Origin: an uncultured Syntrophomonadaceae bacterium
Lineage (GTDB): Bacteria; Bacillota; Dethiobacteria; PWVN01
NCBI GenBank assembly: GCA_964541505.1
Contig: CAZIRG010000001.1
Coordinates: 1 to 42,643 of the forward strand
DNA: 42,643 bases
Direction of reading: 5' to 3'
Positions 1-24,710 of this stretch are shown piece after piece. The notes beneath the pieces were generated by a model. That model worked only from the letters and a program-made list of their open reading frames with translations. It searched no databases and was not told the origin of the DNA. Position 1 is the first letter of the stretch. Each line of letters starts with the position of its first letter. A program made the translations under genes and the position numbers.

Positions 1-53
1 AGAGCAACGCATGAGATAATTTTAAAAACAGCTCAATAGACCTGAGTAGTTAC
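1..53 (+). mobile_element. Right-hand end of a MITE-like element (family A), cut by the window edge. It ends in the terminal inverted repeat CTGAGTAGTTAC at 42-53.
   Basis: It is 52/53 identical to 22210-22262 and 52/53 identical to the reverse complement of 11413-11465. Confidence 0.75.
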
Positions 54-11412: not shown

Positions 11413-11496
11413 GTAACTACTCAGGTCTATTGAGCTGTTTTTAAAATTATCTCATACGTTGCTCTCAAGTTGCTGCAGCAAATACCAAAGAGAGCA
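11413..11496 (-). mobile_element. Truncated family A MITE copy in inverted orientation relative to copies 1-53 and 22117-22262
   Basis: The TIR GTAACTACTCAG is at 11413-11424. The next ~70 nt are near-identical to the reverse complement of 22181-22262, and similarity is lost after AATACCAAAG.GAGCA. Confidence 0.7.
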
Positions 11497-11505
11497 TTGA
11501 TTTTA

Positions 11506-12180
11506 TTAATCAGAAGGAGCGGAAAATCTTGAGGATAGCAGTTTAAATGCTTTGACAACATCGCTGGCACCAAAAACGGCAGAGCCAGCTACCAGTACAG
11601 TAGCACCAGCTTTCGCAACTTCGGCTGCATTCTCTCGGTTTATACCTCCATCTACTTGTATTTCCAAAGACAAGTTCCTTTTTTCTCTTAATAAGGATAA
11701 CTGCTTTATTTTCGGCAATACTTGGGGAATAAATGCCTGACCACCAAACCCAGGGTTGACAGACATTAGAAGCACCAGATCCAGTTCTTCCAGCACATAG
11801 TCCAGCACAGCAAGAGGTGTCGCTGGGTTCAAAGCCACCCCGACCTGTATTTCAAATTCTTTTATCGCTTGAATTGTCCTATGTAGATGAATACAAGCCT
11901 CGGCATGTACGCAGATAAGATCTGCCCCGGCTGCTGCAAAATCTGCCAGAAAAAAATCTGGGTTTTCAATCATCAGGTGAACATCAAGAAAAAGAGAGGT
12001 TCTTTTTTTGATAGCACTGACTACAGCAGGACCCCAAGTTATGTTGGGCACAAAATGCCCATCCATAACATCAATATGAAGCCAAGAAGCACCTGCTTTT
12101 TCTACTTTTCTGATTTCTTCACCTAGATAAAAAAAATCCGCTGCCAGCAGAGACGGTGCAATGTTGATCGTCAATATCAA
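11506..12180 (-). CDS. rpe: Ribulose-phosphate 3-epimerase
   Basis: The blocks IAPSLLAADF, HIDVMDGHFVPN and VDGG are present. TTG 12180 overlaps the rsgA stop, and an alternative TTG at 12174 has better SD spacing. Confidence 0.9.
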   Translation of the reverse strand: MILTINIAPSLLAADFFYLGEEIRKVEKAGASWLHIDVMDGHFVPNITWGPAVVSAIKKRTSLFLDVHLMIENPDFFLADFAAAGADLICVHAEACIHLHRTIQAIKEFEIQVGVALNPATPLAVLDYVLEELDLVLLMSVNPGFGGQAFIPQVLPKIKQLSLLREKRNLSLEIQVDGGINRENAAEVAKAGATVLVAGSAVFGASDVVKAFKLLSSRFSAPSD

Positions 12181-13072: not shown

Positions 13073-14911
13073 CTATTCGGGAAACTCTTTGTGAGCTAAA
13101 ATTTCTTCATTATATATAACTGTTACCTGACCTCTATCATACCCTTCTACGACAATTGGGTTACCCCAATACTCTACTGTCTCTTTCCGCTCACCTCGGA
13201 TATCCGTGATGATTATCTCTACTTTTTCACCCAAAGGTACTCGTTCGGAAGGAATATTAACAGTTATACGATATTTTTTTACGCTGTCCAGATCAGGACC
13301 TATACTAAACGTCAGATCAAGTAAATCACCTTTATACAATGTTTCTCCCGGCTCCGGGAATTGATCAATAACCTGACCTACTGGAGCAAGGTCATTTAAT
13401 TCTGTTACATGACCTAATTTTAAATTGTTGTCAGCAAGCCATTTTTCTGCTTCTTGACGAGTTAAACCACGTAAATCTGCTATTTCTACAGGCTCTGTCC
13501 CCTTGCTAACTACAATAACTACCAAATCACCTTTCATAAGGCGAGAACCTTCTCCTGGACGCTGGCTGATAATCCGTCCGGCATCCACTTCATCACTGAA
13601 AATCTCCTCTTTTTCTACCTCAAAACCAGCCGCCTGCAAGGAAATCCGTGCCTCTATCTCCAACTTTTCCAGAACACCCGGAACTTTAATAAAAGCAGGT
13701 CCGGTACTTAAGATAAACTCTATTTTTCTGACCTGTTGCACCATTCTGCCGGCAAGAGGATTTTGGGAAACAACATAACCAGTAGGAATATCCGAAGACG
13801 AGGCCTGACCAACTACTTCAAAATCAAGACCAACTTCCCGCAATCTGTCAACGGCCTGCTGCAAAGGAAGACCTTCAACTTCAGGCACAGCCACTTCTGG
13901 GGTTGAAAAAAAGTCAGACACCCAGGTATACCCTGCAAAAATTAAACCAGCGAGAAAAACAATAGCAACAAAAACTGCGATCAAGCGAAGCTTGCGTTTA
14001 TTTTTTTTCTGCCGGGAAGAGTTATTATTCCTAGGACGCTGACCATTACTGGCTCTACCATTATATTTATTAGTATAGGAGAAATTCATTTTTAGATGCT
14101 CCTCCAATATCTTCAAATCCTCTTTCAAATCTTTTGCTGTTCTATAACGATCTGCTGGATTTTTTTCTACTGCTTGCATAATTATCTCTTCCAGCTCTAA
14201 AGAAACTTCCGTATTCATTTCTGCCGGGAAAGGAACGTTCTCCTGTATATGTTTCAAAGCTACAGCGACCATATTTTCTCCCGAAAAGGGCACTGTCCCT
14301 GTTAGCATTTCATAGAGCACAATACCCAACGAATAGATATCCGATCTCTCTTCCGCCGGCTTCCCACTGGCCTGTTCGGGAGAAAGATAATGCACAGAAC
14401 CGATAATTGTGCTGGTATAAGTTATAGTTGTGGTTGTAATCCCCCTAGCTATACCAAAATCAGCAACTTTTACCCTCCCTTCGGGAGTTATGAGAATATT
14501 ATGAGGCTTTATATCTCTATGCACGGTATTATGTTTATGTGCTTCTTCTAAGGCCTCACATATCTGAATAGCAATGGAAATCACTTGGGAAGGGGGCAAA
14601 GTTCCTTTTTTAAGAATAAGATCTTTTAGAGTCTGACCGTCAATATATTCCATGACAATATAGTAAAGATTATTTTCTTGACCGACGTCATAAACATTTA
14701 CTATATTGGGGTGGGAAAGATTAGCAGCAGAGAGAGCTTCTCTGCGAAAACTACGTACCAGGTTATTGTCTCCAGTCAGATTTTCTCTGAGAATCTTTAC
14801 AGCTACCGTCCGACCAAGAAGAGTATCCGCTCCTTTATATACTACCGCCATTCCACCTTCACCTATTTTTTCTTGTAGGCGGTACCTTTCTCCCAGTATT
14901 TTACCTATCAT
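13073..14911 (-). CDS. pknB: Ser/Thr protein kinase with a TM helix and three PASTA repeats (PknB/PrkC type)
   Basis: Kinase blocks GEGGMAVVYKG, HRDIKPHNIL and DFGIA are present, followed by a TM helix (LIAVFVAIVFLAGLIF) and repeated PASTA-like units. Confidence 0.9.
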   Translation of the reverse strand: MIGKILGERYRLQEKIGEGGMAVVYKGADTLLGRTVAVKILRENLTGDNNLVRSFRREALSAANLSHPNIVNVYDVGQENNLYYIVMEYIDGQTLKDLILKKGTLPPSQVISIAIQICEALEEAHKHNTVHRDIKPHNILITPEGRVKVADFGIARGITTTTITYTSTIIGSVHYLSPEQASGKPAEERSDIYSLGIVLYEMLTGTVPFSGENMVAVALKHIQENVPFPAEMNTEVSLELEEIIMQAVEKNPADRYRTAKDLKEDLKILEEHLKMNFSYTNKYNGRASNGQRPRNNNSSRQKKNKRKLRLIAVFVAIVFLAGLIFAGYTWVSDFFSTPEVAVPEVEGLPLQQAVDRLREVGLDFEVVGQASSSDIPTGYVVSQNPLAGRMVQQVRKIEFILSTGPAFIKVPGVLEKLEIEARISLQAAGFEVEKEEIFSDEVDAGRIISQRPGEGSRLMKGDLVVIVVSKGTEPVEIADLRGLTRQEAEKWLADNNLKLGHVTELNDLAPVGQVIDQFPEPGETLYKGDLLDLTFSIGPDLDSVKKYRITVNIPSERVPLGEKVEIIITDIRGERKETVEYWGNPIVVEGYDRGQVTVIYNEEILAHKEFPE

Positions 14912-20885: not shown

Positions 20886-22091
20886 TTATCTTCTTCCTCT
20901 TCTTATCTCCGTAATCTTATCTAATATTTTATTAGCAACTTTATCTTTAGTTGCTAGAGGAATATCCTCCACAAAACCATCTGGTAAAAGAAGTTTTACA
21001 GCATTGTCATCAACAGCAAAACCAGCTTCTGGTCGGCTGACATCGTTGACTGCTATAAGGTCAAGATTTTTCTCGTACATCTTTTTAGCGGCATTAGAAA
21101 GTAAATCCTGGGTTTCTGCAGCAAAACCAACTAATATTTGCCCACTTTTTTTCTTTGTACCCAAAGTTTTTAGGATATCCGGATTTCTCTCTAGCTTTAT
21201 TTCCATAAGAAAACTTTTTTTGATCTTATGAGGCTCAATTTGTAATGGTCGGTAATCGGCTACAGCAGCAGCTTTAATAATAATGTCCATTTCCGCAGCC
21301 AGAGAAGTTACTATTGCATACATTTCACGCGCAGTCTTTATTTCTTTAAAATCGACTCCAGCAGGAGGAGTAAGTGAGGTAGGTCCGCTTATCAAGGTAA
21401 CTTTTCCTCCCCTTTCACTGGCAGCTCTAGCTAGGGCATAACCCATTTTGCCACTGGAATAATTACTGAAATAACGAACAGGATCAAGTGGTTCTTGTGT
21501 AGGTCCTGCTGTAATCATTACTCTAAGCCCGACTAAGTCTTTTTGCTGTTTAAGGGAAAGTCGCACTAAATCCAAAATAGTAGACGGCTCAGCCATCCTA
21601 CCTTTGCCAACAACACCACAAGCCAATTCTCCGCTGTCCGGTTCTATTATGATTACCCCCCTGTTTCGCAATATTGCTAAATTTTGCTGTAATACAGAGT
21701 CATTGTACATGGCAAAATTCATAGCCGGAGCCAGAAAGGTAGGGCTATCTCCCCTAGCTAGAAAAATAGTGGAGAGAAGGTCATCAGCCAATCCATAAGC
21801 CATTTTAGCAATTATATTAGCTGTAGCCGGTGCCACCACCAAAACAGTTGCCCAGTCTGTCAGGCTAACATGCTTAATTCTAAAATTTTCTACCTCAGAA
21901 AAAACGCTGGTATAGACAGGATTAGTGCTCAAGGTTTGCAAAGTCAGCGGAGTAATAAACTTGCATGCATTCGTAGTCATAATAACCTGCACAGCAGCAT
22001 TTTCTTTAACAAATAAACGGCAAAGTTCTGCCGCTTTATAGGCAGCAATACCTCCTGAAATACCTAGGAGAATATTTTCGCCTTTCACCAC
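20886..22091 (-). CDS. coaBC: Bifunctional phosphopantothenoylcysteine decarboxylase / phosphopantothenate-cysteine ligase
   Basis: It has the flavoprotein N-terminus GISGGIAAYKA and the C-terminal CoaB block ITAGPTQEPLDPVRYFSNYSSGKMG. The start is GTG with the SD GAGGTG. Confidence 0.92.
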   Translation of the reverse strand: MVKGENILLGISGGIAAYKAAELCRLFVKENAAVQVIMTTNACKFITPLTLQTLSTNPVYTSVFSEVENFRIKHVSLTDWATVLVVAPATANIIAKMAYGLADDLLSTIFLARGDSPTFLAPAMNFAMYNDSVLQQNLAILRNRGVIIIEPDSGELACGVVGKGRMAEPSTILDLVRLSLKQQKDLVGLRVMITAGPTQEPLDPVRYFSNYSSGKMGYALARAASERGGKVTLISGPTSLTPPAGVDFKEIKTAREMYAIVTSLAAEMDIIIKAAAVADYRPLQIEPHKIKKSFLMEIKLERNPDILKTLGTKKKSGQILVGFAAETQDLLSNAAKKMYEKNLDLIAVNDVSRPEAGFAVDDNAVKLLLPDGFVEDIPLATKDKVANKILDKITEIRRGRR

Positions 22092-22116
22092 ACCTACACC
22101 TCACTGTTCAAAGTTT

Positions 22117-22262
22117 GTAACTACTTAGCTAAGCTGCTACAGCAACACCACGTTCGCTGGATTTTATATGTGTATCGGTGCTCACTTTGGTATTTGCTGC
22201 AGCAGCTTGAGAGCAACGCATGAGATAATTTTAAAAACAGCTCTATAGACCTGAGTAGTTAC
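22117..22262 (+). mobile_element. Complete 146-bp MITE (family A) with TIRs and an 8-bp target-site duplication
   Basis: The TIRs are GTAACTACTTAG (22117-22128) and CTGAGTAGTTAC (22251-22262), matching 11/12. The direct repeat CAAAGTTT occurs at 22109-22116 and 22263-22270. An internal inverted repeat pairs 22131-22145 with 22194-22208 (14/15). Confidence 0.85.
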
Positions 22263-22271
22263 CAAAGTTTT

Positions 22272-22469
22272 TTATCTACGCTCATAAACTGTTTCTCCCC
22301 TGAATATTTCTTCCAAGGCTATAGTAATTTCGTTCCTAAACTTCCCATTTGTTTTTTTCTTTTCCATAAGTTCCTCTTTTATTTGCCTCGCTCTGCGAGC
22401 AGCAATAATAACCAAAGTATATTTACTATCAACCTGTTTCATAAGTTCGGTAATAGAAGGATAAATCAC
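22272..22469 (-). CDS. rpoZ: DNA-directed RNA polymerase subunit omega
   Basis: It is 65 aa, contains YTLVIIAARRARQI and lies directly after gmk. Confidence 0.88.
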   Translation of the reverse strand: MIYPSITELMKQVDSKYTLVIIAARRARQIKEELMEKKKTNGKFRNEITIALEEIFRGETVYERR

Positions 22470-22482
22470 CTGGTGCCCTCCT

Positions 22483-23109
22483 TTAAAGTGGGAAACATAT
22501 ATGTTCCCCTTCTAATATCTTATTAATCAACTTTTTATTTCTGGACGCTCTTCTTCTTTCTGCTCTTAAAATAGATTTAATATCAGCAACAGCTCTTCCG
22601 AGATTGTCATTTAAAACAACAAAATCATAAATATCCAGAGACTTGAGTTCTTCCAAGGCAAGATTTAATCTTTTTTTGATAATTTCTTCTTTCTCTGTTC
22701 CTCTTTTAGTAATCCTCGATCTGAGTTCCTGAAAAGAGGGTGGAAGCAAAAAAATAAAAAGACCTGCCGGGAAAGTTTTTTTAACTTGCCGAGCACCTTG
22801 CGTATCTATTTCCAACAAAACATCTTTGCCCTGACGCATTTTCTCTGCAATAAACTTTTGGGGAGTACCATAAAAATCCCCATAAATTTCTGCCCATTCC
22901 AAGAAAGCTCCTTCTCCCACCAGCTGCAAAAAATTACTTCTGGAAACAAAGAAATAGTTTGTCCCCTCTTTTTCTCCTGCACGAGGAGGACGCGTAGTCA
23001 TAGAAACAGAAAGACTTAACTCTGGGCTTGTCTTTAGCAAAGTACTGCAAACAGTACCTTTTCCAACTCCTGATGGTCCCGAAACTACTACCAGGAGACC
23101 TTCTCCCAT
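22483..23109 (-). CDS. gmk: Guanylate kinase
   Basis: The blocks GPSGVGKGTV and TTRPPRAGE..G.NYFFVS are present. Confidence 0.93.
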   Translation of the reverse strand: MGEGLLVVVSGPSGVGKGTVCSTLLKTSPELSLSVSMTTRPPRAGEKEGTNYFFVSRSNFLQLVGEGAFLEWAEIYGDFYGTPQKFIAEKMRQGKDVLLEIDTQGARQVKKTFPAGLFIFLLPPSFQELRSRITKRGTEKEEIIKKRLNLALEELKSLDIYDFVVLNDNLGRAVADIKSILRAERRRASRNKKLINKILEGEHICFPL

Positions 23110-23112
23110 TCT

Positions 23113-23391
23113 TTACTCACCTTCCATATCTTTGGTAGAAGAAGTATTCTCCTTGGAATAAAGGCGATGTTTTACCGTCTCTGGCTGTACTGCAGATAAA
23201 ACAACATGCTCGCTGTCAGCAACAATGACAGCCCTAGTTCTTCTCCCATAAGTAGCATCAATCAACATGCCTCTATCCCGAGCTTCAGTAATAATTCTTT
23301 TGATAGGAGCAGATTCAGGACTTACAACAGCTATGATACGATTAGCAGCTACAATATTACCAAACCCAATATTAATTAATTTTACCGACAT
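23113..23391 (-). CDS. remA: RemA/DUF370-family regulator
   Basis: It contains [27 protein letters not shown] and lies between yicC and gmk, as in B. subtilis (ylzA). Confidence 0.88.
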
Positions 23392-23558: not shown

Positions 23559-23671
23559 GTAACTATTCAGCTACAGCCAGTTTCCAATTAAAAACCGGGT
23601 AATCACTGTAAACTGTAAACCGTAAAGTGGTATTCAATCTCTAACTATTACGTTAGTGCCTGAATAGTTAC
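23559..23671 (-). mobile_element. Complete 113-bp MITE (family A-prime) with perfect TIRs and a perfect 8-bp target-site duplication
   Basis: The TIRs are GTAACTATTCAG (23559-23570) and CTGAATAGTTAC (23660-23671), matching 12/12. AATGTTAG occurs at 23551-23558 and 23672-23679. It is a shorter sibling of 2390-2572. Confidence 0.85.
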
Positions 23672-23744
23672 AATGTTAGTTTTTAACCTACGCCTATATA
23701 GTATAACGTAATCTTTGCAAAAAATGCAAGAGGGATTTTTGTTT

Positions 23745-24626
23745 TTACTCTATATTTTGCAATTGTTCTCTTATTTTCTCGATTTCGCTTTTTATCTCTA
23801 CCACTCGACTGGAAATTTCGTAGTCATTAGCCTTGGAAGCTATGGTGTTGATTTCTCTGTAAATCTCCTGTACGATAAAATCCATCTTGCGACCCACCGG
23901 CTCCTTTTGCTGTAACGTCATCAAAAAAGCTTTGTTGTGGCTCTTGAAGCGTACCAACTCTTCTGTTATATCACTTTTTTCTGCGAAAATTACTACTTCC
24001 ATCAGCAAACGACTCTCTTCAATTTCTTGCTCTTGCAAAAATTCTGCTACCCGCTCTTGTAGCCTTTTCCGGTATTCTTCGACAACAGAAGAAGTCCTCT
24101 CCTCAATATTCTGCACTAGAGTATCAGCTTTGAGCAAACACTCCTGCATACTTAAAGCCAACTCTCGACCTTCGTCTTCTCGGCTTTTGACAAGATTATC
24201 CAAAGCCTCTTGCAACGCCAACGACAGATCCTGCCAGATAGAAGTCAGATATTCTTCCTTATCAATGGAGATAATATCAGGGAAACGAGCCAACAAAGGC
24301 GGAAAAGAACACCCTATATTTTGCTTAAACGCCAATTCTTCCAGTTCCTTAACAGCCTGCAAATAAGCAGTAGCAAGATTTTTATCCATTTTTACTTGGA
24401 ACCGGTTTCCTTCTTTTTTTGCTATATTTATAAACACCTCCACTCTGCCTCGGGCTACATATTGCCTTATAGTTTTTTTAATTTTATCTTCCAAGAACAT
24501 AATCTCCCTAGGAGCACGAACAGCAATATCACAATAACGATGGTTTACCGTTTTTATCTCTACAGATACCTCGTACTCCTCTCCCACCTGTTTTCCTCTC
24601 CCATAACCAGTCATACTTTTAATCAT
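23745..24626 (-). CDS. yicC: YicC/YloC-family protein (stress-induced endoribonuclease family)
   Basis: It has the MIKSMTGYGRG N-terminus and the C-terminal block GRKMDFIVQEIYREINTI. The start is set at ATG 24626, and the ORF-track start at 24662 is in the same frame. Confidence 0.88.
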   Translation of the reverse strand: MIKSMTGYGRGKQVGEEYEVSVEIKTVNHRYCDIAVRAPREIMFLEDKIKKTIRQYVARGRVEVFINIAKKEGNRFQVKMDKNLATAYLQAVKELEELAFKQNIGCSFPPLLARFPDIISIDKEEYLTSIWQDLSLALQEALDNLVKSREDEGRELALSMQECLLKADTLVQNIEERTSSVVEEYRKRLQERVAEFLQEQEIEESRLLMEVVIFAEKSDITEELVRFKSHNKAFLMTLQQKEPVGRKMDFIVQEIYREINTIASKANDYEISSRVVEIKSEIEKIREQLQNIE

Positions 24627-24632
24627 AAAGTT

Positions 24633-24641
24633 CCCCCCCCC
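24633..24641 (-). repeat. Homopolymer G9 (C9 on the plus strand) forming the Shine-Dalgarno region of yicC
   Basis: The minus strand reads GAAGGGGGGGGGAACTTTATG, with the tract ending 6 nt before the start codon. Confidence 0.8.
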
Positions 24642-24710
24642 TTCTCTTTCAAGCAACCACAAGGGATTGCCTCTACTAACTTGCCCACTTCTCGTTCCCC
24701 TCCTAATATC

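Follow-up and report, generated by a model that had tools for sequence, protein, structure and literature searches.

Organisation of the rpoZ-coaBC junction

The stretch of DNA analysed here, referred to as the window, comprises 42,643 nucleotides and belongs to a MAG of 2.03 Mb which is distributed over 360 contigs and 91.6% complete. On its minus strand the window carries a yicC-like gene (23745-24662), remA (23113-23391) and gmk (22483-23109), all assigned by means of Pfam, as well as rpoZ (22272-22469), which encodes the omega subunit of RNA polymerase (65 aa; PF01192, E = 3.8e-15), and coaBC (20886-22091), which starts with GTG and encodes a bifunctional PPC decarboxylase/synthetase of 401 aa (PF02441 and PF04127). 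A look-up of the exact CoaBC sequence returned no record. At the junction of rpoZ and coaBC, direct reading of positions 22109-22270 reveals the arrangement CAAAGTTT + GTAACTACTTAG…CTGAGTAGTTAC + CAAAGTTT. Here, a 146-bp element (22117-22262, plus strand), oriented antisense to the transcription of gmk-rpoZ-coaBC, is enclosed by the left (22109-22116) and the right copy (22263-22270) of an unstranded 8-bp target-site duplication (TSD). The element begins with a left TIR of 12 nt (22117-22128, plus strand) and ends with a right TIR of the same length (22251-22262, plus strand). The initial annotation had described these as 12-bp TIRs; while their positions are right, the ends are imperfect and agree at 11 of 12 positions, with T vs C at position 10. 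An internal inverted repeat of 15 nt, which had been noted as well, is present, its plus-strand arms AAGCTGCTACAGCAA (22131-22145) and TTGCTGCAGCAGCTT (22194-22208) matching at 14 of 15 positions and pairing with each other in the predicted fold. Every motif coordinate of that annotation turned out to be exact, and the distances given there agree with the coordinates of the two genes, according to which element and duplication lie 1 nt downstream of the rpoZ stop codon and 25 nt upstream of the coaBC start.

Within 22117-22262 no ORF of at least 40 aa is present, and with 146 bp the element stays below the size limit of about 500 bp applied to MITEs. In size, TIRs, TSD and dispersed copies (see below) the 146-bp element has all structural attributes of a MITE. 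The Shine-Dalgarno sequence of coaBC, GAGGTG (22097-22102, minus strand), is located outside the element, intact and conserved in the congener introduced below, and the rpoZ stop codon and the coaBC start codon are likewise untouched by the insertion. The element has landed between two essential genes without visible damage to either of them.

Copy number and distribution of the family

A BLAST search of the host MAG with the element yielded 93 HSPs which merge into about 80 loci, and further copies are found in the congener, so that the many genomic copies expected for a MITE do exist. In the genome of 2.03 Mb, 115 exact matches to the 12-mer GTAACTAYTYAG were counted, compared with 0-3 occurrences expected from five second-order Markov simulations; the abundance of this terminus together with the 8-bp duplications is far beyond chance. 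The copies had initially been thought to be about 98% identical, which applies to partial copies only, as the one at window positions 1-53 matches at 52 of 53 nucleotides, but not to the best other full-length copy (C93:50-196), which is 96% identical to the 146-bp element. The copy at window positions 11413-11501 is 93% identical. The family is carried by two of 41 related genomes and is thus restricted to the genus. A search of about 185,000 species representatives detected the right-end motif in the congener only, and the right end of the element gave no match in the JGI metagenome collection.

Of the approximately 80 loci of the family, 42 are located no more than 150 nt from the end of a contig. 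The contig of the window itself starts within a right arm of the family (window 1-53), and five further contigs (C33, C93, C122, C161 and C90) start exactly 49 nt ahead of an element. The MITEs are a main cause of assembly fragmentation and, with 42 of about 80 loci at contig ends, explain much of it.

The 146-bp copy, which we assign to the short form of family A, is the shortest member of a size series. Copies of about 250 bp (C108, C8, C254, C2, C31, C120) harbour an extra central block of about 104-110 bp between two copies of the 6-bp direct repeat TGCTCA (…ATCGG TGCTCA … ATCAA TGCTCA…). In an alignment of six short and eight medium copies this block is missing exactly in all six short ones, and alignment of the copies places the deletion junction that separates the short from the 250-bp form at the TGCTCA at 22179-22184 (plus strand). 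The central block possesses a hairpin of its own and is never found apart from the arms. It is for this reason that the short form has to be regarded as having arisen by internal deletion of the block between short direct repeats, and the longer form not as the product of a nested insertion; an independent nested mobile module of about 104 bp is thereby ruled out. Consequently, the element, initially called intact, is so with respect to its ends, while its body is an internal-deletion derivative of the 250-bp form. Among the short copies, C1 and C93 are like C108 and C33 is like C254, that is, they take after different medium subfamilies; either the internal deletion recurred or the copies recombined.

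In copies of 287-465 bp (C26, C145, C306) a further palindromic insert of heptamer repeats is present, and most left ends next to a contig edge belong to such copies. These long forms (C26:5463-5749, C145:2833-3215, C306:839-1303 and about 20 contig ends) contain the insert as a nested palindrome of about 150 bp, the arms of which are heptamer arrays (GGTGAGA AGTGGGA GGTTAGA GGTTAGA … TTCCAAC TTCCAAC TTCTCAC TTCTCAC). The left arms at contig ends were also considered as remains of a collapsed long autonomous IS, which is ruled out, as they belong to long forms of about 290-470 bp with the nested heptamer palindrome. Apparent “solo right halves” consist of the central block and the right arm, with a different or truncated left part attached.

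Further MITEs are present in the window. A 5'-truncated copy of family A (11413-11556, minus strand), made up of central-block positions 45-104 and the right arm, borders on rpe (11506-12180) at the 3' end of the gene. The last 11 codons of rpe and its stop codon (…LLSSRFSAPSD*) consist of element sequence which is identical in other copies, e.g. in C108, so that the MITE supplies the C-terminus of the rpe product. A member of a second MITE family of 113 bp is inserted in the same operon as the 146-bp element, between the yicC-like gene and remA (23559-23671). It has perfect TIRs of sequence GTAACTATTCAG and a perfect 8-bp TSD, AATGTTAG, i.e. an IS66-type terminus, and its interior is unrelated to family A. 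A related terminus is found at position 2390, and the arms 2375-2468 and 23593-23686 are 89% complementary.

Target-site duplications, empty sites and time of insertion

Considering terminus pairs of opposite orientation (+/-) within 3 kb of each other, a perfect 8-bp duplication is present in 12 of 28 cases, and six more match at 7 of 8 positions. Manual inspection of the other short and medium copies revealed the flanking duplications AACAAAAC (C93), AAATATTT (C40), CTTTATTT (C108), CATTTTTT (C8) and GTTGAAGG (C254).

The only known congener is the uncultured Syntrophomonadaceae MAG CAZLTH01, the CoaBC of which is 84% identical to that of the host. Its orthologous junction is contiguous and reads rpoZ-TAA-AAACTTTG-GACAGTGAGG…GTG-coaBC, in full rpoZ-TAA-AAACTTTG-GACAGTGAGGTGTAAGTGTG-GTG-coaBC. 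With its single AAACTTTG it represents an empty site of the kind that the initial annotation had proposed to look for. The reciprocal situation is observed as well, since a copy of about 248 bp in the congener is flanked by GAAAAGTT while contig C59 of the host genome contains a single GAAAGGTT. These reciprocal occupied and empty sites imply that the family moved in both lineages after their separation, and the insertion between rpoZ and coaBC dates after the split of the host lineage from its only known congener. A few contigs are identical in the two bins, but orthologous loci are only 83-89% identical, from which it follows that the comparison spans different genomes. Some 100% identical contigs in the species-representative bins of host (G000) and congener (G001), noted for G000:C26 vs G001:C26 and G000:C141 vs G001:C152, suggest partial bin overlap or contamination, G001 being listed at 5% contamination.

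In the independent Logan assembly SRR16916502 the rpoZ-coaBC site is occupied, too, and a metagenome scan for an empty allele with the host genome's own flanks gave no match. Within the population that was sampled, the insertion seems to be fixed. At another locus, the congener carries a family-A element of about 250 bp (L041, G001:C14 at about 14515-14760) at the spot orthologous to G000:C110:4100-4270, where the host has another element, which is family-B-like, contains CTGTAAA repeats and has an end reading …CTGAATAGTTAT. In this case different MITEs used the same spacer independently.

Relationship of the termini to IS66 elements of the ISBst12 group

The profile PF03050 (DDE_Tnp_IS66) has one match in the host genome, a fragment at C22:7496-7678, and CTGAATAGTTAC is found about 130 nt past the end of its reading frame. 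Used as a query, this fragment retrieved full-length relatives from many phyla. About 24 of them, originating from several phyla, are elements of 1.55-1.75 kb with GTAACTACTCAG or GTAACTATTCAG at both ends and perfect 8-bp duplications; these termini differ from the left TIR of the MITE at 1-2 positions. The longest ORFs of six full-length elements include three intact ones which encode proteins of about 495-500 aa, and the one protein tested out of these three contains DDE_Tnp_IS66 (PF03050, E = 1.8e-42), zf-IS66 and DUF6444. ISDge4, a single-ORF element of the ISBst12 group of IS66 which transposes experimentally, has the TIRs GTGACTACTCAGCA and GTAACTGCTCAGCA and an 8-bp direct repeat (PMC12898284). 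On the basis of the full-length elements and of ISDge4, the termini of the MITE and the length of its duplication match the ISBst12 subgroup specifically. The link to IS66, originally drawn from the GTAA ends and the 8-bp duplication, is thereby supported, as the same or nearly identical ends are present in full-length IS66 elements, in ISDge4 and in a remnant within the host genome. Likewise, the autonomous ISs with the same TIRs that had been envisaged do exist, namely as full-length IS66 elements with the same termini and 8-bp TSDs in other genomes. The MITE and the full-length ISs resemble each other over about 12-17 terminal nucleotides only, and for this reason no particular parent IS can be named.

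The remnant in the host genome (C22:6594-7860) is a defective IS66 element of 1,267 bp with the TIRs GTAACTGTTCAGGC and GTAACTATTCAGGC and no TSD. It is composed of the left TIR, a DruA-family ORF, a transposase gene which lacks about 1.2 kb relative to the element L050, and the right TIR. What is left of the transposase is a C-terminal fragment only, corresponding to PF03050 positions 223-283. An intact IS66 transposase is found neither in the host bin, fragmented and 91.6% complete as it is, nor in the four relatives G001-G004. The trans-acting partner is therefore deduced from other genomes and from the remnant, and, given the completeness of the bin and its 360 contigs, a full IS66 copy may be unassembled or lost.

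The C22 copy derives by internal deletion from a two-gene variant of IS66 that occurs in three phyla (C22:6594-7860; L050:105-2548; L083, L085, L086, L089 and L121 from Opitutales, 2596 bp; L073). In this variant an ORF of about 290 aa of the DruA family overlaps the start of the gene for an IS66 transposase of about 495 aa, and the TIRs read GTAACTAC…. The DruA-family ORFs are recognised by PF14236 (formerly DUF4338; E = 4e-34 and 2e-36), and several of the Opitutales copies have perfect 8-bp TSDs. L050 stems from a Syntrophomonadaceae MAG and hence from the same bacterial family as the host. This element and the 2.6-kb elements from Opitutales/PVC MAGs share the termini and the 8-bp TSD with the MITE, and the layout of the defective C22 copy is like theirs. 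Unlike the MITE, which has only the ends in common with them, these elements measure 2.4-2.6 kb and code for the transposase together with a protein of the DruA family. A literature search found no paper linking DUF4338/DruA with IS66.

Taken from these sequence comparisons, the 146-bp element was presumably mobilised in trans by an IS66-type transposase. A DDE transposase of the ISBst12 group would bind both 12-nt termini (GTAACTAYTYAG), cut the element out or copy it, and insert it into a target opened by a staggered 8-bp cut, the repair of which would give rise to the CAAAGTTT duplication. Mobilisation by a family other than IS66 that generates 8-bp duplications, e.g. ISL3, IS256, IS6 or IS1595, could be invoked with reference to the lack of an assembled intact IS66 transposase in the host genome and to the fact that an 8-bp TSD by itself is not diagnostic. 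We consider it very improbable, however, as the 12-nt terminus is identical or nearly identical to that of dozens of IS66/ISBst12 elements with 8-bp TSDs and close to that of ISDge4, and as the sole remnant with the same ends in the host genome encodes the C-terminus of an IS66 DDE transposase. Moreover, the termini of ISL3, IS6 and IS256 are different; the 8-bp families in ISfinder other than IS66 end, for instance, in GGCTCTT (ISL3) or GG (IS6/IS256). An IS200/IS605 PATE or a REP-type element was also considered and is ruled out by the TIRs and the 8-bp TSD.

Possible consequences for the expression of rpoZ and coaBC

The insertion extends the rpoZ-coaBC spacer from 26 to 180 nt; in the empty site of the congener the spacer measures 25 nt. 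The adjacency of the two genes recurs in other Bacillota with spacers varying from about 11 to 394 nt, so that the longer spacer is not unusual in itself. In simple consensus scans of both orientations, the element showed neither a sigma-70-like promoter nor an intrinsic terminator, the sole promoter-like site in the scan being located inside rpoZ (22432-22405), and a scan of positions 21900-22500 against Rfam gave no match at E <= 1. In the sense of the operon, the RNA of the element is predicted to fold with a ΔG of -49.4 kcal/mol (z = -4.8) into a structure which closes via the TIRs and the internal repeat. This fold is significant for the element alone, whereas the fold of the 211-nt junction as a whole is not (z = -1.1). 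No U-tract follows the hairpin. According to the initial annotation, any signal for coaBC has to cross the element or to come from it. The position of the element 25 nt upstream of coaBC agrees with this, but nothing points to a promoter or terminator supplied by the element. Most likely, the operon transcript would read straight through the element, which would adopt a closed, rod-like, stable hairpin in the mRNA with little effect on coaBC.

Family copies between co-directional genes are oriented sense in 12 and antisense in 10 cases, i.e. there is no orientation bias, and no family copy lies inside an ORF although a crude map assigns about 79% of the genome to ORFs. Such a distribution is that of a selfish element which is tolerated, as opposed to a regulatory module with a direction. 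It has to be weighed against the idea that the MITE has been exapted for regulation, be it as an outward promoter, as a terminator or attenuator, or as an RNase III site which uncouples coaBC from gmk-rpoZ. The proximity to coaBC, due to which every coaBC transcript crosses the element or starts in it, and the very stable predicted rod speak for such a role, as does the precedent of Correia and ERIC elements, which are cleaved by RNases and alter mRNA levels (PMC10969869). Yet, the lack of a sigma-70-like promoter and of an intrinsic terminator in both orientations, a hairpin without U-tract, the balanced orientation of the copies and a congener which copes with a 25-nt spacer render exaptation unlikely. 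We regard it as improbable, too, that the hairpin has been co-opted in this lineage for RNA processing or stability and thereby sets the expression of coaBC/priA relative to gmk/rpoZ, and, more broadly, that the burst of IS66-type MITEs in this genus originates from an undescribed two-gene IS66 variant with a Druantia DruA-family gene. Being structured, intergenic and immediately upstream of a biosynthetic gene, the element might finally be taken for a dedicated cis-regulatory RNA of coaBC, such as a riboswitch or leader, instead of mobile DNA. Such an RNA would be hard to reconcile with its absence from the orthologous junction of the congener, with about 80 copies at unrelated loci in both orientations, with the 8-bp duplications flanking these copies, and with the lack of any Rfam family at E <= 1; empty site and copy distribution effectively refute it. 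Read-through with a near-neutral effect on coaBC is thus the reading which we infer for the insertion.

Discussion

With a probability of about 0.9, the 146-bp feature between rpoZ and coaBC is a non-coding MITE, an internally deleted derivative of an element of about 250 bp with ISBst12-type ends, which inserted after the split from the congener and is probably read through by the operon transcript. Its termini, GTAACTACTCAG being the form found in full-length relatives, resemble those of the ISBst12 group, represented by ISDge4 of Deinococcus geothermalis (GTGACTACTCAGCA / GTAACTGCTCAGCA) and ISBst12 of Geobacillus stearothermophilus, and the 8-bp target duplication of this group is the same as in the MITE; dozens of full-length relatives have identical 12-nt ends. 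In contrast to the ISs of the ISBst12 group, the MITE, with a length of 146 bp and without a transposase gene, is non-autonomous, and the resemblance ends after the terminal 12-17 nt or so.

Small size, TIRs, a TSD, multiple copies, intergenic location and the potential to form a co-transcribed hairpin are shared with Correia/NEMIS of Neisseria, ERIC, RUP and MITEPsy1, and, as in the case of MITEPsy1 and ISPsy2, mobilisation in trans is deduced from the identity of the TIRs with those of an IS. However, the partner IS family differs from that of the classical bacterial MITEs, and the TSD measures 8 bp compared with 2 bp (TA) in Correia and 4 bp in MITEPsy1. In a further difference from the classical elements, an IHF site, a promoter or processing by RNase III would be hypothetical in the present MITE. 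IS66 goes unmentioned in a review of prokaryotic MITEs from 2024 (PMC10969869), and no IS66-derived MITE came up in the part of the literature that our search covered.

The insertion is an ordinary and well-documented event of mobile DNA which leaves the understanding of how MITEs work unchanged. If the DruA-carrying IS66 variant were indeed the source of the MITEs, it would link a protein family of the Druantia defence system to transposition. Irrespective of that, the rpoZ-coaBC junction provides a clean case of a bacterial MITE with TIRs, TSD, empty site, reciprocal empty site and partner family, and it adds the ISBst12 group of IS66 as a probable source of MITEs which is unlisted in the MITE literature that could be searched. 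For the annotation of this genome it means that the rpoZ-coaBC spacer and several other junctions of the window can be labelled scars of mobile elements and not regulatory sequence.
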